Positions 4,611 through 60,513 of a stretch of DNA of 64,000 bases are shown here, piece after piece (the first letter of the stretch is position 1; every line of letters begins with the position of its first letter). The notes beneath the pieces were generated by a model. The model ran no database searches. It had not been told where the DNA came from and worked only from the letters and a program-made list of their open reading frames with translations. The stretch is from Candidatus Saccharimonadota bacterium. GTDB taxonomy: Bacteria > Patescibacteriota > Saccharimonadia > Saccharimonadales > JAXHNE01. Where the stretch lies: positions 4,787-68,786 of the forward strand of contig JAXHNE010000002.1 in the NCBI GenBank assembly GCA_034520885.1, in the 5' to 3' direction. The translations under genes and the position numbers were made by a program.

Positions 4611-5165
4611 TCATTTACGTTCTTGCTTTTTAGCCTTCATGTATTCTTTGTATGTTTTATAGGTTTTAGTGTCTTTTACGCGGTCTACAAACAATACGCC
4701 GTTTAAGTGATCGACTTCATGTTGCACAACCTGAGCAACGAGCCCATTGAACGATTCCACCTGTGAAGCACCGTTTTTATCTAAAAATCTTACGCTCACT
4801 TCCTTATAGCGCGGTACTTTAGCAAATAAATCTGCTTTGCCATTGCTGCCCGCACTAATGCAGCCTTCCCACACCTGCTTACGATTGCCTTTTGTTTTAA
4901 TAATCTCTGGGTTGATCATAACAGCCTCAAACGGCTCAACTTCTGGACGATGTTTTGTCGGCTGAATTATAATTATGGTTAATGCTACGTTTCGACCAAC
5001 CTGTGGTGCTGCTAATCCAATACCGAGCTTTTTTTCAACAAGTGTGTGCCTCATGTCGGTTATGAGCTGCTTAATTTCTGCGGACTTGATGTTTTGCACG
5101 CTTAAGCTTTTACATTTTTGACGCAAAACCGGGTTGCCAAATTGGGTAATCGTTAAACGATTCAT
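4611..5165 (-). CDS. def: peptide deformylase
   Basis: All three PDF motifs are present: GIGLAAPQVG, EGCIS and QHEVDHLNG. Confidence 0.95.
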   Translation of the reverse strand: MNRLTITQFGNPVLRQKCKSLSVQNIKSAEIKQLITDMRHTLVEKKLGIGLAAPQVGRNVALTIIIIQPTKHRPEVEPFEAVMINPEIIKTKGNRKQVWEGCISAGSNGKADLFAKVPRYKEVSVRFLDKNGASQVESFNGLVAQVVQHEVDHLNGVLFVDRVKDTKTYKTYKEYMKAKKQERK

Positions 5166-5613: not shown

Positions 5614-6054
5614 ATGCGAAGGATTGCGGTGCGTGGCATAGCGGTACGCGACAATAAACTTTTGTGTGTGCGTCACAAGATGTACACCGGAAACATTGTC
5701 GGTAAGGATTTTTGGTGCTTGCCCGGCGGAACGGTGGACGAAGGCGAAAACCTTACCGCCGCAATTACGCGTGAAATGATCGAAGAAACCGCGATTACGC
5801 CACTGATCGGCAAACTACTCTACATCAATCATTTTCAAGCCAACAACATGGAGCATTTGGAGTTTTTCTTTCATGTAAAAAACCCGGAAGATTACCGGGA
5901 AGTTGACCTTTCCAAAGCCTCGCACGCCGAGGAAGAAATTGCCGAAATCGACTTTATCGACACCACCAAAAACAATGTGTTGCCCGAGTTCCTCACCACC
6001 AAACCAGCAAACGACTTACTGACGGCCAATGCGGAAATTATCAGCTCTTTGTAG
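5614..6054 (+). CDS. NUDIX hydrolase
   Basis: Nudix box GGTVDEGENLTAAITREMIEETAI. ATG at 5614 lies 6 nt after TGtTATACT (5599-5607). Confidence 0.85.
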   Translation: MRRIAVRGIAVRDNKLLCVRHKMYTGNIVGKDFWCLPGGTVDEGENLTAAITREMIEETAITPLIGKLLYINHFQANNMEHLEFFFHVKNPEDYREVDLSKASHAEEEIAEIDFIDTTKNNVLPEFLTTKPANDLLTANAEIISSL

Positions 6055-6570
6055 CTGCTTTAAATAATTTTGTGCTTGCCTGCTAGAGGTAAAATGCATT
6101 ATTTTTTGTGATTTGTTTTTGTCGTTCATTGATTTTTCTATCTTTTGAACCGTGGTGGAGCGTTTTTTATGATTCCACACATGTTTCAGGAATGCCCAAT
6201 CCAGCTTTTCCCGCCAATCATCGGGCATGTCTTGGCGTTTCTTTTGCCCGCCAAATTCAACGCGTCTTTTTAAGACGCGGTACATAGTAAGCCACCTTGG
6301 TAGGTCAAAATAAATAATGATATCCGCCCGAGCGAGTCGTTCCGGAATCGTGGTACTGTAGTTGCCGTCCATGATCCATTCGTCACGTGCGATTATTTTT
6401 TTGACCCGAGCAAACCATGCTTCTTTGTTTTCGTAATAGTTTTTATCCGTTTGATGATAATAAAAGTCCAGATGGATCAGCGGTAAACCGGTTTTCTCCG
6501 CCAATTCGCGGGCGAAAGTAGACTTCCCCGATCCGGGCGCCCCAATAATAGCAACACGCTTCATATACAT
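6016..6570 (-). CDS. P-loop kinase (adenylate-kinase-like / topology-modulation FlaR-like)
   Basis: Walker A motif VAIIGAPGSGKST at the N-terminus and a small size. It overlaps the NUDIX gene convergently by 39 nt. Confidence 0.7.
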   Translation of the reverse strand: MYMKRVAIIGAPGSGKSTFARELAEKTGLPLIHLDFYYHQTDKNYYENKEAWFARVKKIIARDEWIMDGNYSTTIPERLARADIIIYFDLPRWLTMYRVLKRRVEFGGQKKRQDMPDDWREKLDWAFLKHVWNHKKRSTTVQKIEKSMNDKNKSQKIMHFTSSRQAQNYLKQLQRADNFRIGRQ

Positions 6571-6638
6571 TATTCTACACCCTGCCCTTCCGGCTTACTC
6601 CCAAAGAACCAACAAATTAATAGTAGCTGGGCCCAAAG

Positions 6639-7076
6639 CTACGTTAGAGAGAGTTCTTTTTGTTTAGCAAGCAAGCCACCGAATTGCTCATCAAAGTAGT
6701 CTTTAAAGTAAGTCTCAGAAGCTTGATAATACTCGCCATTATTGCCATCTTTGATTCGCAAATTCGTAATTTGGGCAATAAACCCGCCGCTCATGTTTTC
6801 AGACAATTGTTTCGTAGCAGGAGTCAGGTCTTCATCGTTAACCAGGCAAAATCTTACTTCATAAATCCCGGACTTGTTGATGACTGAACTGACTCGAGCA
6901 GCATGCTTAGCTGCCGTTCGTTGATTGCCAGCCAGAGATATTGCTGCCATGCATAGCATATCTGGCTGAATATCATGTTCGATCAACCGCGCTTCTTGTC
7001 CTTTAATATATTCCTGGATCGTACACAGTCCGGACTCTTCAAAAAATGGCATAGATATTAGTTTTATACATCTCAT
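6639..7076 (-). CDS. hypothetical protein
   Basis: The ORF-track version (to 7220) overlaps the next gene. The internal ATG at 7076 (MRCIKLISMPFFEE...) removes that overlap. Confidence 0.5.
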   Translation of the reverse strand: MRCIKLISMPFFEESGLCTIQEYIKGQEARLIEHDIQPDMLCMAAISLAGNQRTAAKHAARVSSVINKSGIYEVRFCLVNDEDLTPATKQLSENMSGGFIAQITNLRIKDGNNGEYYQASETYFKDYFDEQFGGLLAKQKELSLT

Positions 7077-16098: not shown

Positions 16099-17154
16099 TT
16101 ATGTTGTAGTGTTGTTTGCTTGCTCTTGGAGGTTCTTTTGGTAGAAGAAGTAGCCAACGGGAAGCTGGATGCCCATGCTGACCACCCGGAACGCCAAGAC
16201 AACGGGCAAACTCAGGGCGGCCGGAACGCCCGACGCCGCGAACACACCGGTCATCAAGGCCTCGTAAATGCCCACGCCGCCCGGGAGAACCGAAATAATT
16301 CCCGCAAAGTTAGCCACCGCGTACGCAATAATCACTGCCCCCGGATTTATAAAGCTCCCGAATGCCATAAAGACGCTCATAATCGCGCTAACTTCCGCCA
16401 AATTGGCCAAAAGCGCGAACAGCAGCGGTTTTTTTAGCTGCGTAAAATCTTTTCTGATCTTCATGTAGTTTTCGTGCAGCTCGGTGAACATACCTTTTAC
16501 GCGGTCAACATTTATGGTTTCGGGGTGTTTGGGCCGAACGAAATGAATCGCCCGATTCAAAAACTTGGTCAGCGCCGTAAAAAAGCCGTTGATGCGTTTT
16601 TTGCTGCCGATAATATAAGCCACCACCGCGGTGCCAACCAGCAATAGCGTGGCCAGCGAACCGGACACCAAAATCACGAAGTCGTTGGCATCGCCCCCTA
16701 AAGCAAGCAGTAAAAGCCCGATTCCTAGCAAAACTTGAAAGGCTATGAATAATAGTACGAAGCGCATCAGCTGCACCAAGGTGGTTTTCCCACTGGTAAC
16801 CCGCTCGCTCTTCATGCGCAGGCCAAGATACGAAAAGCCGCTTACTCCCCCGCTGGGGAACACGTTGTTGACGAAATTAAGCTCCAGACTGAGTCGAAAC
16901 ATCGCTTTGATACGAAAACGTTCGCCGAAAATCCGAAACACTGATTGGTACATGCGCCCCTGTGAATAGTGATTCGTAATGGCCAGTGGCACCAAAGCAC
17001 CGATCCACAGTAAGTTGGCATTACGCAAGTTGGTGATGGTTTCCGATATTTGCTCACGCAGGGCATAGACCGCCAACGCCAAGGCAATGAAAGTGATGAC
17101 CGTCAGAACGATCCTCCAGTTTAACCGTCTTTTTACTTCACGCATCCCGTCCAT
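16099..17154 (-). CDS. flippase-like / lysylphosphatidylglycerol-synthase TM-region family membrane protein (UPF0104)
   Basis: 351 aa with about 8 TM helices and a general UPF0104-like layout. Confidence 0.6.
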   Translation of the reverse strand: MDGMREVKRRLNWRIVLTVITFIALALAVYALREQISETITNLRNANLLWIGALVPLAITNHYSQGRMYQSVFRIFGERFRIKAMFRLSLELNFVNNVFPSGGVSGFSYLGLRMKSERVTSGKTTLVQLMRFVLLFIAFQVLLGIGLLLLALGGDANDFVILVSGSLATLLLVGTAVVAYIIGSKKRINGFFTALTKFLNRAIHFVRPKHPETINVDRVKGMFTELHENYMKIRKDFTQLKKPLLFALLANLAEVSAIMSVFMAFGSFINPGAVIIAYAVANFAGIISVLPGGVGIYEALMTGVFAASGVPAALSLPVVLAFRVVSMGIQLPVGYFFYQKNLQEQANNTTT

Positions 17155-19490: not shown

Positions 19491-21011
19491 TTAGAGCTTT
19501 GCCTTTCTTTTATTATTTTCTTGTCGCTCTACACCTCTCGACGCTCTAAATGATTTAATCGGAGCAAACTGATCTAAGAATTTGGAAATATCTACGTACT
19601 CGCCACTTGCCTTCGTAGAGGTGAATCTTGTTGGTATAGCGGTTGTCTGCTTATTATACTCAAGCGGTTTGGTGGTTAATATTCCTGAATACATCATCGT
19701 CTCGTCGGTACCATATGCCGTTGCCCTGCTATCCGCGGAGCGAATCCGATCGATCCATACGCGCCCTTCTTTGTCATACGCCATGTGCCAATGCACGCGT
19801 GCGCCATTTATGGAAGCCTCGTAAACCTCTTTTGTAATCTGCCCAAGATGAGGGTGGCTGTCCATATACGTCTCTACCGGTGAGTCGAACGTGGGCACTC
19901 CTTCCTCTTTTGATAGTTCACTATTTATTTTTTCAACGTAGTCACTGAGCGCATCACCGGCTTCTCCTGCCCCGACACCGAGTTGTTCGGCAACGTCTTG
20001 CTCTCCAAGAGTTCCGGTTCGTACTTGCTGTAAAAGCCCATTTAATTCGCGATTACCGAACCCAAGAACTCCAACTTTCTCATAAAATTCATTCATACTG
20101 ACCACGGCTTCGTGATGCGCCATAAAAAGTTCTCGAGGGTCGGTGTACGGAGCATGATCTCCATAAAACTCACTGGCTTCCTCTACGATTTTCCTAAACT
20201 CCGGGTGCAGTTGGGTATCTTGCGTGTATTGTGCGAGTGAACCGGTTTCGGGTCCTTTTACGAAACGCTGACTTTGGCTTTCAATACCTTGCGAAACCCG
20301 CAAACTTCCTTCCGAATTTGAGCGGTAAACAAAAAAAGTGTGCGAATTGCCTTCCTTGTCCGTGGATTCGAACACAAGCGATCTTTCCCGTTCGTTTACG
20401 GCGAACGCCCCTCTTAGCTCGTAGGATACGTCATCAATTTTACGTTCAAAATTGCCTTCTTTTTCTTGACTTTCAGGGGTTTCAAGTGGATTCGTAATTA
20501 CTGATGTGCCGTTAGTTGATTCTAGATCGGTAATGTTTACGCGGCCGTTCTCGTAAGACACCGAAAAATGGTTCCTGGAGACATGATCGTCCTCAAGACC
20601 GAGACGTTTCGCGTGGTGGGCTCTCCCGTACACCTTTTCACCGCTATTCTCGCGAACCGGCATAACAGCGTCCGAAGCCGGCCGCGCCTCATCTTCATCG
20701 GCTTTAGTATCCGGGTCGTACTCTTGGGAGCCAAGAAACAAAAAACCGTTCGGGTTGATCCTGCCACTCTCGGCGGGTGCCCACAATTTAACCCCTCTGC
20801 CCGCAACATCCATTACCGCTACGAGAGCCGAGGTTTCACGCATCTCTAGTGGCTCAACTGTGCTCAGATCAATGGAAAGAGCACCTTCGCCCAAGTTATG
20901 CAATTCTAGCTGTTGGTGTCGCGCTTCCGTTTCCTGGTCTATATCAGTTACGAACGGCTTTACTTGCTCAACGGCGTCAGAAGAGAGTGGGTCTTGTTCA
21001 AAGCTTTTCAT
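19491..21011 (-). CDS. FHA-domain protein with a large uncharacterised C-terminal region
   Basis: The central segment VYGRAHHAKRLGLEDDHVSRNHFSVSYENGRVNITDLESTNGTSV matches the FHA pattern (GR...S..H....N...D..S.NGT). Confidence 0.7.
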   Translation of the reverse strand: MKSFEQDPLSSDAVEQVKPFVTDIDQETEARHQQLELHNLGEGALSIDLSTVEPLEMRETSALVAVMDVAGRGVKLWAPAESGRINPNGFLFLGSQEYDPDTKADEDEARPASDAVMPVRENSGEKVYGRAHHAKRLGLEDDHVSRNHFSVSYENGRVNITDLESTNGTSVITNPLETPESQEKEGNFERKIDDVSYELRGAFAVNERERSLVFESTDKEGNSHTFFVYRSNSEGSLRVSQGIESQSQRFVKGPETGSLAQYTQDTQLHPEFRKIVEEASEFYGDHAPYTDPRELFMAHHEAVVSMNEFYEKVGVLGFGNRELNGLLQQVRTGTLGEQDVAEQLGVGAGEAGDALSDYVEKINSELSKEEGVPTFDSPVETYMDSHPHLGQITKEVYEASINGARVHWHMAYDKEGRVWIDRIRSADSRATAYGTDETMMYSGILTTKPLEYNKQTTAIPTRFTSTKASGEYVDISKFLDQFAPIKSFRASRGVERQENNKRKAKL

Positions 21012-44406: not shown

Positions 44407-45348
44407 TCAGACGAAAAAGATGAGCGACAAGACGACCAGCAACGTCGCCTGCAAGACAACGATCACCTTTTCAGCGGCTATAAAGTCCTTACCCAGCGAG
44501 CCGGATTTAGTAATTTGCTGCCGATGCACTTGCCCGAGCGCCAGGTAAGCCAAAAATCCGGCGGCCAACAAGGCATAGACGGAGGCGCTCAAAGTAACGA
44601 ACCCGTACAGGTAAGTGTGTAAAATGCTGATACCGATGATAACCCATGGCAAAAGCAGTGCTTCGATGGCGATTTTTTGTTTCAGCCTCGTACTGCGACC
44701 GATCAAGTTATAACGATCGGTCAAATACCCCAAGACGGCGGTAAATGCCGGAATGCTCGCCAAAAGAAGCAGCGTCATAACGTCGCGCACGCCGACCGCC
44801 GCGGCGATCACCGCGATAACCAACGGGCCGAAAACCGCGTGTTCTACCCAGTTCAAACTGGTAAATTTATTCTTTACTTGCGCGCTATAACGAGCGAATA
44901 ACCTTGTCGATAAAGCGGCGTGCCATAAAGCTCCGGCAATCAACACGCCCGCTGCCACGTACAACAGGTTAACCGCGAACAATTCGGTGGCCGCCGGCAA
45001 AAGCGATCCGGTTTCGGTCAAAGTATTCTCCGCCAGGTAGCTGGAGTTAATTCCCACCACCGCGTCATTGCCGTAGCTAAATAAGAATCCGGCCAACACG
45101 GCCATTAATAATCCTAAGAACACGTGCAGTTTTTTAAGCTGCATGAACGCGTCTTTTACGGGCGCGGTTTTTTTGCCCTTGGCCGTAGCCGCTGATTTTT
45201 TAGCGGTCGTTTTGGCCGTAGTTTTCTTGGCCGCCGTTTTCTTGGCGGGTTTTTTAGTGGATTTACGAGCCGTGCTCGCCCTGGAAGTCTTGGTCTTCGT
45301 TTTGGTCGTTGTTTTCGCTTTACTCGGTTGTTTCTTACTTGTAGCCAT
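44407..45348 (-). CDS. heliorhodopsin-like 7-TM protein with Lys/Ala/Thr-rich N-terminal tail
   Basis: Seven predicted TM helices. RYSAQVKNKFTSLNWVEHAV and LPWVIIG resemble heliorhodopsin segments as I remember them. The start is ATG 45348; the ORF-track extension to 45591 is spurious. Confidence 0.55.
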   Translation of the reverse strand: MATSKKQPSKAKTTTKTKTKTSRASTARKSTKKPAKKTAAKKTTAKTTAKKSAATAKGKKTAPVKDAFMQLKKLHVFLGLLMAVLAGFLFSYGNDAVVGINSSYLAENTLTETGSLLPAATELFAVNLLYVAAGVLIAGALWHAALSTRLFARYSAQVKNKFTSLNWVEHAVFGPLVIAVIAAAVGVRDVMTLLLLASIPAFTAVLGYLTDRYNLIGRSTRLKQKIAIEALLLPWVIIGISILHTYLYGFVTLSASVYALLAAGFLAYLALGQVHRQQITKSGSLGKDFIAAEKVIVVLQATLLVVLSLIFFV

Positions 45349-45578
45349 AATGAATGAACTATAGCATATTCCAGCTGATATAATAATAGTATGGTGCAAA
45401 GAGCTGAATGGAGGGATGCCGTGAACTACGCACGTGAGCATAGTTTGGCAGTTCTTCGCGAGCATCGTAAAAGAGGCGTACTTAACGGTACGGTGACTGC
45501 GAAGCGCAGAGAAAACTGGCAAAATATGCCACGAACAGCAACAGCACCACATGCTTGGCATGTGGGCAGGATGCTGTG

Positions 45579-46112
45579 ATGCGTAGTTCACAGGTCGCTA
45601 CTTTGGCCGGTGGTTGTTTTTGGTGCTTGGACGCGATTTTCCGCCAAACCAAAGGGGTAAAATCCGTTCAAAGCGGTTTTAGCGGCGGCCATGTTGAAAA
45701 CCCTAGCTACATGCAAACGCATGATGAAGACACCGGCCACGCCGAAGCCGTACAAATCGAGTTTAACCCTGACGTCATTAGCTACGAAACGATCTTACGA
45801 ATATTTTGGACGAGCCATAACCCCACCACGCTCAACCGTGATGGCGCCAACGTCGGGCCGGAGTACCGAAGCGAGGTGTTCTATCACGACGAAACCCAGC
45901 GCAAAACCGCGGAGAACGTACTACGTGACTACGCCGAAAAACTGTGGGACGATCCCATCGTCACCAAAATTACCAAGTACAAAAACTTCTACCCCGCCGA
46001 AGAACATCACCAGGATTATTTTAATAAAAACCCACAGGCCGGCTACTGCCAAGTCATCATCAACCCCAAAATCACTAAGTTCAAGGAAAAATTCAAGGAC
46101 TATTTAATCTAG
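45579..46112 (+). CDS. msrA: peptide methionine (S)-S-oxide reductase
   Basis: Active-site GGCFWC motif and the size of the MsrA family. Confidence 0.9.
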   Translation: MRSSQVATLAGGCFWCLDAIFRQTKGVKSVQSGFSGGHVENPSYMQTHDEDTGHAEAVQIEFNPDVISYETILRIFWTSHNPTTLNRDGANVGPEYRSEVFYHDETQRKTAENVLRDYAEKLWDDPIVTKITKYKNFYPAEEHHQDYFNKNPQAGYCQVIINPKITKFKEKFKDYLI

Positions 46113-47621
46113 CTTCACTTCGGGATAGATTGATTTGGTGACTTCGTCGGTTTCGCGGCGTAAGTTAGGAAATGGCACGCCTTCGCGGGCGCTGACGCCT
46201 TCGAACTGCCAAAACACCCGTTCCGAAAACCCAAGACCACAGGATGGCGGCATACCGTATTCCAGCATTTCCACGTAGTCAATATCTAACATTTGCGCTT
46301 CGTCATCACCGGCATCGCGCATAGTTTGCTGTTCTTGAAAGCGCTGCAATTGATCAATTGGGTCGTTTAATTCGCTCCACCCGTTACATAATTCACTTCC
46401 CATAATCACCGCTTGAAAACGCTGTACATAATCCGTACTTTCGTCGCTCATTTTGCTCAGCGGTGAAATAAACGTCGGCGTATTGATCAACCACACCGGG
46501 CCGACCACGTCTTTGCGGATATTCTTCCAGAGCTTGTCTATTCCACGGGGAATGTTGTCGGTTTTTTCGACTTCTAGTTTATTTTCTTTTAATTTGGCGG
46601 CAACTTGCTCAATCGTACAATTAAACACGTCGATGCCGTACTCTTTTTTAATCACTTCCGCGTAGTCCCACTGCTCCCATTTTTGAGACATGTCAACAGT
46701 CTGTCCTTTAAACTCAAAAGTCAGCCTGCCAAAAGCGGCCTGCAATACGTCCTTGAACATACGTTCCATCATGCCCATGCCGTCTTCCCAGTCAGCGTAA
46801 GCCCAATACCACTCCATAGCGATGTGTTCTGGGAGGTGTTCTTCGCTGTAGTTTTCGTTCCGAAACCGCGGACCGATGTCATATACTTTTTCGTACCCCG
46901 CGCCGATTAAACGTTTGAGCGGTAATTCGTGGGAAATTCGCAAATAGAAATCCTCGCCCAAAGCGTCCATGTGCGTCACGAACGGGGTGGCATCGGCGCC
47001 GCCAGTAGTGTGTTCCAGCACCGGCGTGTTGATTTCGATAAAACCATCGTTGTTTAAGAAGTCACGCGTAGCTTGCCAAAATTTGCTGCGACGGATGAAC
47101 CGTTCGCGCACTTCGTCGTTGACGTTCATGTCCACGTAACGGCGGCGCAAGCGTTGTTCTTTATCGGTAAATCCGTCCTGCTCGGTAGGGAGTGGCCGCA
47201 AACTTTTGGCCAAAAGCCGCAATTTTTTGCAATTTACGGATATTTCCCCGGTTTGGGTTTTAATGATTTCCCCACTGCACTGCACGAAATCACCACTATC
47301 TAGCAGCGTAATTTCATCCGGCATTATTAGTTCGGAGTTACTCCGGTCGGCTTCAGTAGAGGGTTCGCCTTTACGAATGAATAACTGCAACTCGCCTTGG
47401 TCGTCCTTAATAACAATGAAAGCCAGTTTGCCGAACTTACGAATGGATTTAATACGGCCGACCACCGTCGCGGACTGCCCTTCCAGCTCACTAAAGTTAT
47501 CCGTGATTTCTCGTAGCTTATGCGTGCGTGTGGAACCGGCCGGATACGGATTAACACCCAAATTCCGAATATCTTCCAGTTTGCGCAGTCGTTCGTCTCT
47601 AAGTTCTTTTAGTGTCGCCAT
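46104..47621 (-). CDS. lysS: lysine--tRNA ligase (class II)
   Basis: 505 aa with an OB anticodon-binding domain followed by class II core motifs (FLRISHELPLKRL, GLGFSER). Confidence 0.95.
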   Translation of the reverse strand: MATLKELRDERLRKLEDIRNLGVNPYPAGSTRTHKLREITDNFSELEGQSATVVGRIKSIRKFGKLAFIVIKDDQGELQLFIRKGEPSTEADRSNSELIMPDEITLLDSGDFVQCSGEIIKTQTGEISVNCKKLRLLAKSLRPLPTEQDGFTDKEQRLRRRYVDMNVNDEVRERFIRRSKFWQATRDFLNNDGFIEINTPVLEHTTGGADATPFVTHMDALGEDFYLRISHELPLKRLIGAGYEKVYDIGPRFRNENYSEEHLPEHIAMEWYWAYADWEDGMGMMERMFKDVLQAAFGRLTFEFKGQTVDMSQKWEQWDYAEVIKKEYGIDVFNCTIEQVAAKLKENKLEVEKTDNIPRGIDKLWKNIRKDVVGPVWLINTPTFISPLSKMSDESTDYVQRFQAVIMGSELCNGWSELNDPIDQLQRFQEQQTMRDAGDDEAQMLDIDYVEMLEYGMPPSCGLGFSERVFWQFEGVSAREGVPFPNLRRETDEVTKSIYPEVKLD

Positions 47622-57312: not shown

Positions 57313-57651
57313 ATGAGTTCGTACCGTGACCTAAAAGTCTGGAAAGATTCATTTGAGCTAACAAAATTAGTTTATAAAGCTACTGTCAAGTTACCTTCAA
57401 ATGAAAAGTTCGGTCTCGCTTCACAAATACAGCGTTGCGCAGTCTCGATTCCGTCAAATATTGCAGAAGGCCAACAACGAAAAGGTGCAAACGAATTTAA
57501 ACAGTTTCTTGGGATAGCCCGCGGTTCTGCGGCCGAACTTTCAACGCAACTTCTGCTTGCCCAGGACATCTATTCTATCGAACTGGAAATACTTGTAGAA
57601 AAAACTGAAGAAATTCAAAAAATGCTCTATAGCTTGCAGCAAAAACTGTAA
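57313..57651 (+). CDS. four-helix-bundle protein (23S rRNA intervening-sequence protein / Avd-like family)
   Basis: YRDLKVWKDSFELTKLVY...QIQRCAVSIPSNIAEGQQRKGANEF...GSAAELSTQ. The gene is flanked by GTTGACAGT / CTGTAACCT word repeats. Confidence 0.85.
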   Translation: MSSYRDLKVWKDSFELTKLVYKATVKLPSNEKFGLASQIQRCAVSIPSNIAEGQQRKGANEFKQFLGIARGSAAELSTQLLLAQDIYSIELEILVEKTEEIQKMLYSLQQKL

Positions 57652-57702
57652 ACTGTAACCTGTAACCTGTAAACTAACCATTGTTACCTGTAAACTAGCC
57701 AT

Positions 57703-58753
57703 ATGGATAAAAAGGAACAAGACCTACGCGACGAGCTCGCCGACATTATGAAACAGCTGGAAGATCCGGCTATTTTCAGCACGCCCGAGTATCCCAAAAT
57801 GCCGCCAAAAAAAGATAGAAGACATACTCGCGCTTTACGATGAACTGGCAAAGAGCAAAGAGCAAAGAGCAAAGAGCAAAGAGCTTCTGGACTCTGACGA
57901 TGAAGAATTGGCCGAACTCGCCAAAAGCGAGATAGAAGATCTGGATTTGAAAATTGAAACCCTCGAACTTAAACTAACGGAGGCTTTGACTCCAAAGGAT
58001 CCCAACGACGAAAAAGATGCCATTATAGAAATTCGCGCCGCGGCCGGTGGCGATGAAGCCGCCCTGTTCGCCGGCGAGCTATACCGCATGTACGCCCGTT
58101 GGTGCGAAACGCACGGCTACAAAATAGAACTTATCAACGAAAGTCCCGCGGAAGTCGGCGGGTTCAAAGAAATCAGCTTTTTGGTGCGCGGCGAAGACAC
58201 CTATAAATTCTTTAAGTTCGAAGGCGGCGTACACCGCGTTCAGCGCGTGCCGGAAACCGAAAGCCAAGGCCGCGTGCACACCAGCACCGTGACCGTGGCG
58301 GTCATGCCCGAAGCCGAAGAAACCGACATTGAAATCGACCAAAACGACCTTCGCGTAGATGTCTACCGAGCCGGCGGCCACGGCGGGCAATCCGTAAATA
58401 CTACGGACTCCGCCGTACGCATCACCCACGTGCCAACGGGGGTCGTTGTTACCAACCAGGACGAAAAATCGCAAATCAAAAACAAGCTCAAAGCCATGAA
58501 CGTATTACGTTCCCGCCTGCTCCAGCACAAAATTGACGAAGAAAACGCCAAGCTATCAGCTGAACGCAAAAAGCTGGTCGGCAGCGGCGACCGCAGCGAG
58601 AAAATCCGCACCTACAACTTCCCGCAGGACCGCATTACCGATCACCGTATTGGCTACTCCCGCAGCAACATCCCCGGAGCTTTGGACGGCCAAATAGACG
58701 ACCTCATAGAAGAACTCCACAAAGCCGAACACGAACTAATGAGTAACGAGTAA
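57703..58753 (+). CDS. prfA: peptide chain release factor 1, reading frame broken by one extra base at an A7 run (57807-57813)
   Basis: Frame 1 (57703-57813) encodes MDKKEQDLRDELADIMKQLEDPAIFSTPEYPKMPPKK. Frame 2 continues IEDILALYDEL...PKDPND...GGHGGQSVNTTDSAVRITH... to 58753. Frame 1 stops at 57841. Confidence 0.85.
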
Positions 58754-59558: not shown

Positions 59559-59637
59559 ATTTAATACTATGTTAATTTAGTATATTTGTACATAATTGTC
59601 AAGCATTTTTATGGGTTTTGTGGTATACTCACCTCTG

Positions 59638-60513
59638 ATGATTACCATTTCTAGGTGGATGGCTAAAAAAACTAAAGCGCTAGAGAGCGCCGGGATTTCC
59701 ACCGCTCGACTGGATTGTTTGGTGCTTTTAGAGGACGCGACCGGTAAAGATCGTTCATGGTTGCTGGCGCATCCGGAGCACGAGTTAGAAAGTTCAAAAG
59801 TTAAAAAGCTGAAAGAGCAAGTTCAGCGGCGGGCTAAGCATGAGCCGCTGGCCTATATTCGTGGGCGGAGTGCTTTTTATGGCCGGGAGTTTTTGGTGAA
59901 CGAACATACTTTGCAGCCCCGGCCGGAAACGGAAACGATGATCGACCACTTAAAATCACTGTACAAGGTTGAACCTTGTACAGAAGCTAAAAGCTCTGAG
60001 CGAAAAGCTCTGAGCATAGTAGATGTAGGGACTGGATCTGGTTGTATTGGGATTACCGCCAAGCTGGAGCTGCCGGATGCGGAAGTGTATGCCACGGACA
60101 TTTCCGAAGAATGCTTAAAAATAGCCCGAAAAAACGCCCGAAAACTAAAAGCCAATGTGGAGTTCCACAAAGCTAATCTCCTCCTCTCCCAAAAAAATAA
60201 TTCTCACTTTTTGAACGATCGTTCAAAAAGTGAGAATATTGTTTTGCTGGCTAATTTACCTTATGTTCCGGAAGGTTTCACTATAAACCAAGCCGCGATG
60301 TTCGAGCCGGACGTTGCCATATTCGGCGGTAAGGACGGATTGGATTACTACCGCGAGTTATTCGCCCAGATTGAAACGCTAAAAACTAAACCACATTTCA
60401 TTTTTACCGAAAGCCTACCAACGCAGCACAAAGACCTGACTGCAATCGCAGAAAAACACGGGTTTCGGCTTCATGAATGCCAGGATTTTATTCAAGTATT
60501 TATTAGGCGTTAG
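59638..60513 (+). CDS. prmC: release-factor glutamine methyltransferase PrmC/HemK
   Basis: EPLAYIRGRSAFYGREF, VDVGTGSGCIGI, and NLPYV in place of NPPY. ATG at 59638. The stop TAG (60511-60513) lies within the terminal motif of the downstream foldback element. Confidence 0.85.
   Translation: MITISRWMAKKTKALESAGISTARLDCLVLLEDATGKDRSWLLAHPEHELESSKVKKLKEQVQRRAKHEPLAYIRGRSAFYGREFLVNEHTLQPRPETETMIDHLKSLYKVEPCTEAKSSERKALSIVDVGTGSGCIGITAKLELPDAEVYATDISEECLKIARKNARKLKANVEFHKANLLLSQKNNSHFLNDRSKSENIVLLANLPYVPEGFTINQAAMFEPDVAIFGGKDGLDYYRELFAQIETLKTKPHFIFTESLPTQHKDLTAIAEKHGFRLHECQDFIQVFIRR

Follow-up and report, generated by a model that had tools for sequence, protein, structure and literature searches.

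The proteins most closely comparable to the one analysed here are the heliorhodopsins (HeRs), of which 48C12 (PDB 6su3 and 6uh3) and TaHeR (6is6) have solved structures, and those type-1 rhodopsins that have naturally lost the retinal-binding lysine, namely the betaproteobacterial Rh-noK proteins, the haloarchaeal 'blind' opsins (PMC4915679), and the freshwater flotillin-associated rhodopsins (PMC10308929; 10.1101/2025.04.29.651185). What HeRs do physiologically is, according to recent papers, still largely unknown (PMC9385722, PMC10308929), and references listed in PMC10308929 report that HeRs bind and regulate glutamine synthetase and photolyase. HeRs of bacteria from the candidate phyla radiation (CPR) have also been surveyed (PMC9166423). 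Here, we describe a HeR homologue encoded on the reverse strand of a 64-kb stretch of DNA from a Candidatus Saccharimonadota bacterium (positions 4,787 to 68,786 of contig JAXHNE010000002.1, assembly GCA_034520885.1; hereafter, the window), in which leucine stands at the position of the lysine that would form a Schiff base with retinal.

When compared to the solved HeRs, the window protein shares their profile match, predicted fold, AB beta-hairpin, BC helix, and N-in charge distribution, and keeps the equivalents of Tyr92, Trp105, Glu107, Asp127, Pro172, Trp173, Gln216, and Glu230 (48C12 numbering). However, it lacks Lys241, Arg104, Ser237, His23, and Asn101, has His for Gln213 and Phe for Tyr226, and carries a polycationic extension of 66 amino acids (aa) where the solved proteins have about 10 N-terminal residues. 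As in the lysine-less type-1 rhodopsins, a rhodopsin fold has stayed under selection after a natural loss of the lysine, implying a light-independent role, and the window protein, presumably retinal-free, is the HeR counterpart of these proteins. It differs from them in its family, whose topology is inverted, in the additional loss of the arginine of the third transmembrane (TM) helix, in its polycationic tail, and in the position of its gene at the orthologous locus of lysine-bearing HeRs, no functional paralogue being seen alongside. Two lysine-bearing tailed HeRs of our data set, P0007 and P0016, share with it the same chromosomal slot, a 'MAT..KK' tail of 60-80 residues rich in Lys, Thr, and Ala, and an MsrA neighbour, but they keep Lys241 and Arg104, have Asp at the counterion position, and are only 29-32% identical to the window protein.

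Proteins of this kind have been filtered out of the main HeR censuses, which required the SxxxK motif (PMC8612252, PMC9166423), or the lysine together with the arginine, or left out sequences without the lysine; the filter in 10.1101/2021.02.16.431466 demands the TM3 Arg. A full-text literature search for lysine-less heliorhodopsins returned no description of them, just the filters that exclude them, and a mention in a subscription review is possible.

Family membership and loss of the Schiff-base lysine

The window protein is a genuine member of the heliorhodopsin family, as judged from its sequence and its predicted fold. The Pfam profile PF18761 matched residues 71-302 with an E-value of 4.9e-20 and 72.3 bits (gathering cut-off 26.7), and all significant matches of a phmmer search against PDB chains were heliorhodopsins (TaHeR 6is6, 1.4e-11; 48C12 6su3, 1.7e-9). 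A profile built from the clade of the window protein, which is described below, was aligned by hhalign to a profile of canonical HeRs with a probability of 99.94% (E = 4.8e-37). The score for the NCBIfam equivalog NF038020, 'heliorhodopsin HeR', was 67.6 bits, under its curated cut-off of 100.

An AlphaFold2 model, obtained from a 23-sequence alignment with a mean predicted local distance difference test (pLDDT) of 80.3 and a predicted template-modelling score (pTM) of 0.73, has a core in which the pLDDT is about 90 or higher (blocks mostly >90). Its seven TM helices, the long beta-hairpin between TM1 and TM2, and the short helix between TM2 and TM3 reproduce the HeR architecture, the last two elements having been described as HeR-specific (PMC13295031). 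When this predicted model was compared to the PDB with Foldseek, the top 10 entries were all HeRs, with target-normalised TM-scores of 0.80-0.87 and a root-mean-square deviation of 2.5-3.8 Å; the score of 0.87 was that of TaHeR (6is6), whereas type-1 rhodopsins reached only about 0.5. Within the seven-TM (7-TM) domain, 17 Lys and Arg residues lie on predicted cytoplasmic segments versus a single one outside (Arg188, in an extracellular loop), and this distribution, together with the +22 charge of the tail, predicts the inverted N-in topology by the positive-inside rule alone. HeR topology has been reported to obey a 'positive-inside, negative-outside' rule (PMC7049168).

Four independent procedures place Leu304 at the position of the Schiff-base lysine, K241 of 48C12: an HMMER pairwise alignment, MAFFT alignments of 9 and of 157 sequences, in which Leu304 falls in the K241 column, an alignment-free spacing rule (Glu230 + 11) that concurs with the alignment in 153 of 157 sequences, and the hhalign comparison, in which Leu304 is opposite the invariant Lys of the canonical HeR profile. 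Residue numbers follow a 48C12 reference sequence that was used in local alignments only. It agrees with the HMMER alignment to the PDB chain and with all 39 of the 39 published residue identities and numbers that were checked (Kovalev et al. 2020; PMC7049168). Lys294, in the motif AEKV, was considered as a Schiff-base lysine and ruled out, since it aligns with R231 of 48C12 at the cytoplasmic start of TM7 and varies between K, Q, and R in the clade. No lysine was found within the predicted membrane segments of the 7-TM domain, and its other Lys and Arg residues are cytoplasmic, with the exception of Arg188.

Among the features by which 'bona fide HeRs' have been recognised in publications, the SxxxK motif and the TM3 Arg are thus absent from the window protein, and the acidic TM3 counterion is present. 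The cytoplasmic polar cluster is largely kept (Tyr154, Trp167, Asp211, Gln278, and Glu293).

An earlier note on this DNA, made from the letters alone, had proposed a heliorhodopsin-like protein without the retinal-binding lysine. The resemblance is confirmed by the Pfam, phmmer, hhalign, and Foldseek results, and the three segment matches that the note had quoted were reproduced by computed alignments. The absence of the lysine is confirmed as well: of the two outcomes that the note had named as fatal to its proposal, the lack of a significant HeR profile match did not materialise, PF18761 matching significantly, and neither did a nearby lysine at the Schiff-base position, the K of AEKV being Lys294, which aligns elsewhere. 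The note had overlooked the loss of the TM3 arginine, the retention of the counterion Glu, and the commonness of lysine-less HeR homologues.

The reading frame is intact over 313 codons, from an ATG at 45348 to a stop at 44407-44409. In NCBI, the product is entered as MDZ7785608.1, 'hypothetical protein U5L95_00600', from a Candidatus Saccharibacteria metagenome-assembled genome (MAG). A longer open reading frame (ORF) of 394 aa, starting from a GTG at 45591 in a mechanical ORF list, was rejected as an artefact, the N-termini of the homologues matching the ATG at 45348. The product from this ATG starts with MATSKK, and 'MAT' followed by a Lys-rich stretch opens 51 of 84 tailed homologues; because the homologues begin 'MAT..KK', we took it to be the true start. 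The features of the gene, of its product, and of its two neighbours are listed in Table 1.

Table 1. Features of the lysine-less HeR gene and its neighbours. Nucleotide positions are those of the window and residue numbers those of the window protein; 48C12 equivalents are from alignments.
Feature	Window positions	Strand	Residues	Basis or remark
Whole gene, lysine-less HeR homologue	44407..45348	(-)		313 aa + stop
N-terminal polycationic disordered tail	45151..45348	(-)	1-66	composition, pLDDT
HeR 7-TM domain	44410..45150	(-)	67-313	AlphaFold2, Foldseek, Pfam
CTG codon at Schiff-base lysine position (48C12 K241)	44437..44439	(-)	Leu304	alignments
Codon at TM3 arginine position (48C12 R104)	44851..44853	(-)	Asn166	alignments; Arg in 81/82 lysine-bearing relatives
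Codon at retained counterion position (48C12 E107)	44842..44844	(-)	Glu169	alignments; Glu in 9/11 clade representatives
TM1			64-92	AlphaFold2 model
AB beta-hairpin strands			97-107 and 116-127	AlphaFold2 model
TM2			128-147	AlphaFold2 model
Short BC helix			151-159	AlphaFold2 model
TM3			164-184	AlphaFold2 model
TM4			190-213	AlphaFold2 model
TM5			221-248	AlphaFold2 model
TM6			255-280	AlphaFold2 model
TM7			289-312	AlphaFold2 model
48C12 Ser237, replaced			Gln300	Gln or His in clade
48C12 His23, replaced			Met82	
48C12 Asn101, replaced			Thr163	
48C12 Gln213, replaced			His275	His in 10/11 clade representatives, Arg in P0014
48C12 Tyr226, replaced			Phe289	
48C12 His80, retained			His143	
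48C12 Tyr92, retained			Tyr154	
48C12 Trp105, retained			Trp167	
48C12 Asp127, retained			Asp189	
48C12 Pro172/Trp173, retained			Pro234/Trp235	
48C12 Gln216, retained			Gln278	
48C12 Glu230, retained			Glu293	
Peptide methionine sulfoxide reductase MsrA, divergent neighbour	45555..46112	(+)		upstream of HeR-type gene
Membrane-anchored trypsin-like serine protease, 713 aa	42172..44313	(-)		downstream, same strand, 93 bp away

Lysine loss among relatives and selection on the clade

A homologue search over 1.84 billion 50%-identity representatives gave 394 matches at E <= 1e-3. The survey of relatives for lysine-less homologues, which the earlier note had recommended, was made on the 157 nearest aligned sequences, 154 of which have a residue at the lysine column. 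This residue is Lys in 82 of them and another in 72 (Leu 15, Thr 13, Gln 12, Ser 7, Ala 5, Val 5, Arg 5, and others). The lysine-less relatives mostly keep the otherwise canonical '..SALAWQ.' motif of TM7, and misalignment is therefore not the cause of the apparent loss. On a rough tree, Lys and non-Lys tips are intermixed, with a Fitch minimum of 33 changes that is inflated by tree error, and this sample indicates many independent events of lysine loss. An acidic counterion was found in 62 of 82 lysine-bearing relatives versus 17 of 61 lysine-less ones outside the clade of the window protein (Fisher p = 1.3e-8, no phylogenetic correction). Lysine loss thus tracks counterion loss, a pattern expected of a real functional shift and not of sequencing error. 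The clade of the window protein is atypical among the lysine-less lineages in keeping the counterion Glu.

Database names overstate the potential for retinal binding. Two lysine-less homologues, P0028 (MDQ3093794.1; K to T) and P0039 (MBA3757600.1; K to S), are named 'heliorhodopsin HeR' in NCBI, whereas the window protein is 'hypothetical' there; the naming of lysine-less homologues matters for metagenomic counts of phototrophy potential. Dark habitats were considered as a cause of lysine loss, but this idea was dropped because the sample names (beach sand, 'Mix_sand', and soil-type sets of the Joint Genome Institute, JGI) were insufficiently informative. In addition, a canonical lysine-bearing heliorhodopsin (SLLAKSFLAW) was observed at 5989-6861 (+) of locus L010, in a Bdellovibrionales MAG, with near-identical genes in three JGI contigs (L018-L020). 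The Bdellovibrionales are a diderm lineage, and this gene bears on the debate whether HeRs are confined to monoderms.

The 11 clusters nearest to the window protein, which are at least 37% identical to it, were monophyletic on a neighbour-joining tree. All 11 are intact, and their residue at the lysine position is Leu in all but one, which has Tyr. Across nine clade sequences with 45-63% identity to the window protein, 44 columns are invariant, including the motifs LGYL(T/S)DRY, GVRD, LLPW, and H..QI. In the closest pairs, the proportion of synonymous differences (pS) was saturated at 0.83-0.89, versus a proportion of non-synonymous differences (pN) of 0.22-0.26 in the TM domain; the tail changes faster than the TM domain (pN 0.37-0.46), but its pN is still below pS (0.73-0.96). 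Because synonymous sites are saturated, the ratio of the corresponding rates (dN/dS) is not quantifiable, and what stands is a pN well below pS.

The 90%-identity clusters of the clade hold one to three members each. With the clade alignment as query, three more loci were recovered from GTDB species, each in a Saccharimonadales MAG (JBFJNW01, JBFIJL01, JBBQAZ01), and one from JGI metagenomes; given how few loci were added by these scans, the clade is rare. By these comparisons, the window gene is a member of a small Saccharimonadales clade under purifying selection, and is not a pseudogene. We hold it to be very probable that the window protein is functional and unable to form a Schiff base with retinal. 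Its residues predict a retinal-free protein that would not be a retinal photoreceptor.

The basic tail and the genomic neighbourhood

The tail consists of 32% K, 24% T, 20% A, 9% S, and 5% P, with one acidic residue and a net charge of +22. Its residues 1-55 have a pLDDT below 50 in the AlphaFold2 model and are predicted to be disordered. Short imperfect repeats of 12-15 nt were seen in the DNA that encodes it, corresponding to repeats of 4-5 residues in the protein. When N-terminal extensions were counted as tails from a length of 35 residues and a K+R content of 20% upwards, 85 of the 157 nearest sequences had one, 49 of them lysine-bearing and 36 lysine-less. In 84 such tails, the median length was 60 residues and the median net charge +17, and both the 'MAT..KK' start and the composition are conserved; the apparent absence of a tail in P0013 is a gene-calling artefact, as the tail lies in frame upstream. 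Its presence on lysine-bearing and lysine-less homologues alike makes the tail a feature of the group, and not an adaptation of the retinal-free form. Where their source is known, the tail-bearing HeRs come from Saccharimonadia. These results show that the tail is older than the loss of retinal binding and came down from lysine-bearing HeRs in this group. No other real ORF of the window has such a tail.

Lys/Ala-rich tails are found in bacterial histone-like proteins, such as the C-terminus of mycobacterial HupB, Chlamydia Hc1, and the Rv3852 family. Like these tails and the C-terminal domain of histone H1, the tail of the window protein is of low complexity, disordered, basic, rich in Lys, Ala, Ser, Thr, and Pro, and made of short imperfect repeats. 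It differs from them in being Thr-rich rather than Pro/Ala-rich, in being fused to a 7-TM protein, and in having no significant sequence similarity to them: a homology search with the tail alone returned nothing at E <= 0.01, and the matches to histone H2B tails (E >= 0.5), to Rv3852_fam (E = 3.5), and likewise to DUF6465 were non-significant and compositional. The Lys/Ala/Thr-rich tail of about 60 aa that the earlier note had seen is thus real, with 66 aa at the predicted cytoplasmic N-terminus, and its description there as 'histone-H1-like' and of a nucleic-acid-binding type holds for the basic low-complexity composition but not for homology.

Two other genes of the window may be mentioned here. 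A 506-aa protein encoded at 19491-21011 (-) has an FHA domain, which binds phospho-threonine; any link to the Thr-rich tail would be pure speculation. An ORF at 16099-17154 (-) matches the transmembrane region of lysylphosphatidylglycerol synthase, presumably of the MprF-like family, and may matter for the membrane surface charge that the polycationic tail would meet.

With regard to the neighbourhood, a gene for MsrA is found directly upstream of the HeR-type gene in seven of 10 clade loci, and also adjoins lysine-bearing and other lysine-less HeRs of Saccharimonadia. The trypsin-like protease is encoded directly downstream in all nine clade loci with downstream sequence, and also near lysine-bearing P0016. 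Since both accompany lysine-bearing homologues, they were treated as ancestral synteny and as weak functional leads. A functional coupling to the protease was considered and downgraded, P0016 having the same protease nearby in a region of syntenic housekeeping genes. In the 713-aa protease itself, an N-terminal segment that is basic and rich in His precedes a hydrophobic stretch; close to the C-terminus there is another hydrophobic stretch, after which the protein ends in basic, His-rich sequence. No Pfam family matched its residues 60-440. The two neighbours would fit a link between HeRs and oxidative-stress genes, as proposed in the literature (PMC8612252).

The slot as a whole reads ProRS-GreA-LysRS-(MsrA)-HeR-(TrmA and/or trypsin-like protease)-RsmE-PDDEXK-SerRS-HPF-SecA. 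It is occupied by the window gene and those of other clade loci, by the lysine-less P0006 (Ser), P0034 (Ala), and P0039 (Ser), and by the lysine-bearing P0007 and P0016. The presence of lysine-bearing and lysine-less genes in one slot indicates that the ancestral HeR locus of Saccharimonadia lost retinal binding repeatedly, in place. Neither a second HeR nor a type-1 rhodopsin was found in the window or in the flanks of 20 related loci, and no carotenoid or retinal biosynthesis gene was detected among the 50 window ORFs scanned against Pfam, the region being one of housekeeping genes. Saccharibacteria with rhodopsins reportedly have no blh and rely on retinal from outside (10.1101/2022.02.13.480300).

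At the same slot, the LysRS gene of the window (46104-47621, (-)) is of class II (PF00152 and an OB fold), as in L001, L011, L013, and L021, whereas L003/L005, L014, L023, and L015 have a class I LysRS (PF01921); the nearest relative of the window protein is encoded in L015. This switch looks like an in-place non-orthologous displacement between close relatives. Further along the window, a release-factor gene with PCRF and RF-1 domains (57703-58753, (+)), 843 bp upstream of prmC (59596-60513), is split over two frames at an A-run near 57806-57814, where a 46-codon ORF stops and the protein resumes in another frame ('..KKIEDILALYDELAKSKEQ..'); the split may be a true frameshift or come from an assembly error at the homopolymer. 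The gene is followed by an AAAGAGC-type tandem repeat, and several copies of 'CCTGTAA(A/C)' are located at 57640-57700 (+), between a 112-aa ORF (57313-57651) and the start of the release-factor gene.

Candidate functions of a lysine-less heliorhodopsin

Taken together, the data are best explained, and in our opinion probably so, if the window protein is a selection-maintained, light-independent HeR orthologue that no longer forms a retinylidene Schiff base and has a polyanion-binding tail. As the synteny shows, the ancestral HeR locus lost the lysine in situ, and related lineages underwent the same repeatedly. The most plausible role would be that of a membrane scaffold or regulator engaging cytoplasmic partners, as reported for characterised HeRs, its working part being the conserved cytoplasmic face and the disordered polycationic tail of about 65 residues, which may bind a polyanion, for instance nucleic acid or the head groups of anionic lipids. 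This specific combination of scaffolding and polyanion binding is offered more tentatively than the general explanation.

Several points weigh against this explanation. Any partner is hypothetical, and the MsrA and protease genes, which also flank lysine-bearing homologues in a highly syntenic housekeeping region, say little on function. A lysine-bearing paralogue may be encoded outside the 64 kb covered here. The binding of a polyanion by the tail is suggested by its composition, no homology to DNA-binding proteins having been found. Finally, the conservation of Glu169 would be unexpected at a simply abandoned site, and non-covalent binding of a chromophore is possible.

The alternative that fares best, although we judge it unlikely, concerns the tail, which may be a membrane or topology device that binds anionic phospholipids and stabilises the N-in orientation, the 7-TM domain having a lipid-related activity such as phospholipid scrambling. 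A light-independent scramblase activity is indeed reported for a proteorhodopsin in PMC10730872, a role in orientation would agree with the charge rule of HeR topology cited above, and a tail carried by 49 lysine-bearing and 36 lysine-less HeRs should serve something common to both; its restriction to this one protein among the real ORFs of the window also argues against a general habit of the proteome. However, canonical HeRs such as 48C12 and P0008 are N-in with about 10 N-terminal residues, so that 60-80 residues with a charge of +17 to +22 far exceed the needs of topology, and the lipid activity is conjectural.

It is less probable still that the window protein is a regulatory subunit, itself blind to light, which heterodimerises with a lysine-bearing HeR encoded elsewhere and modulates this light-sensing partner. 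A role of this type has been hypothesised for type-1 Rh-noK proteins encoded next to a functional proteorhodopsin, and a functional paralogue accompanies both Rh-noK and FArhodopsins (PMC10308929; 10.1101/2025.04.29.651185). Moreover, HeRs are described as dimers (PMC13295031), Asp127 of the dimer interface is kept as Asp189, and multiple rhodopsins can be present in one CPR genome (115 were counted in 86 genomes; PMC9166423). Nevertheless, neither the window nor the flanks of the 20 related loci contained a candidate partner, another interface residue, Tyr179, has been replaced by Ser in most clade members, and the occupation of the same slot as the lysine-bearing HeRs of other Saccharimonadia points to an orthologue that replaced the photoreceptor and not to an added paralogue.

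We consider it very unlikely that a chromophore or another small ligand, for example a metal, a proton, or a hydrophobic metabolite, is held non-covalently in a remodelled pocket that would be formed by His275, Gln/His300, Tyr268, and Glu169. New polar residues are fixed in the clade at positions that formerly contacted retinal or the Schiff base, the counterion Glu persists in nine of 11 representatives despite its decay in most other lysine-less lineages, and zinc binding by HeRs, at a site not identified, is cited in PMC8612252. However, larger residues partly fill the pocket (Gly169 is replaced by Leu, and by Val in two clade representatives, pocket positions being approximate). A decaying relic, be it an incipient pseudogene or a mere chance match to the family, as the 'hypothetical' name in NCBI and the NCBIfam equivalog score of 67.6 against 100 might suggest, is effectively excluded by the intact frame of every clade member, the 44 invariant columns, the low pN beside saturated synonymous sites, the high-confidence fold prediction, and the monophyly of a clade with a uniform Leu (one Tyr) at the lysine site.

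Since lysine-less sequences were left out of the censuses by design, it has probably gone unnoticed how often retinal binding was lost (72 of the 154 nearest sequences) and that this loss is concentrated in retinal-auxotrophic CPR bacteria. Since about half of the nearest 50%-identity clusters have no lysine, retinal sensing may be a dispensable add-on that was shed repeatedly from a HeR fold with a core light-independent function in Saccharimonadia, the Schiff-base region having been rebuilt, in the clade of the window protein, into a new polar site, made up of Glu169, His275, and Gln/His300, at which a non-retinal ligand is sensed or bound. This wider proposal is a speculative one, which we would not expect to hold in full. 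If such a core function did exist, it might consist, for example, in the regulation of partners, in a tethering of the membrane to the nucleoid through the tail, or, in bacteria believed to rely on the lipids of a host, in lipid scrambling.

In this clade, the fold with its topology, the cytoplasmic face, and the basic tail have been preserved under purifying selection, but the TM7 Lys and the TM3 Arg, held to be the most conserved residues of the family, are gone. This argues that part of HeR function needs no light, and the lysine-less clade would then be a natural 'dark' control for finding what HeRs do.

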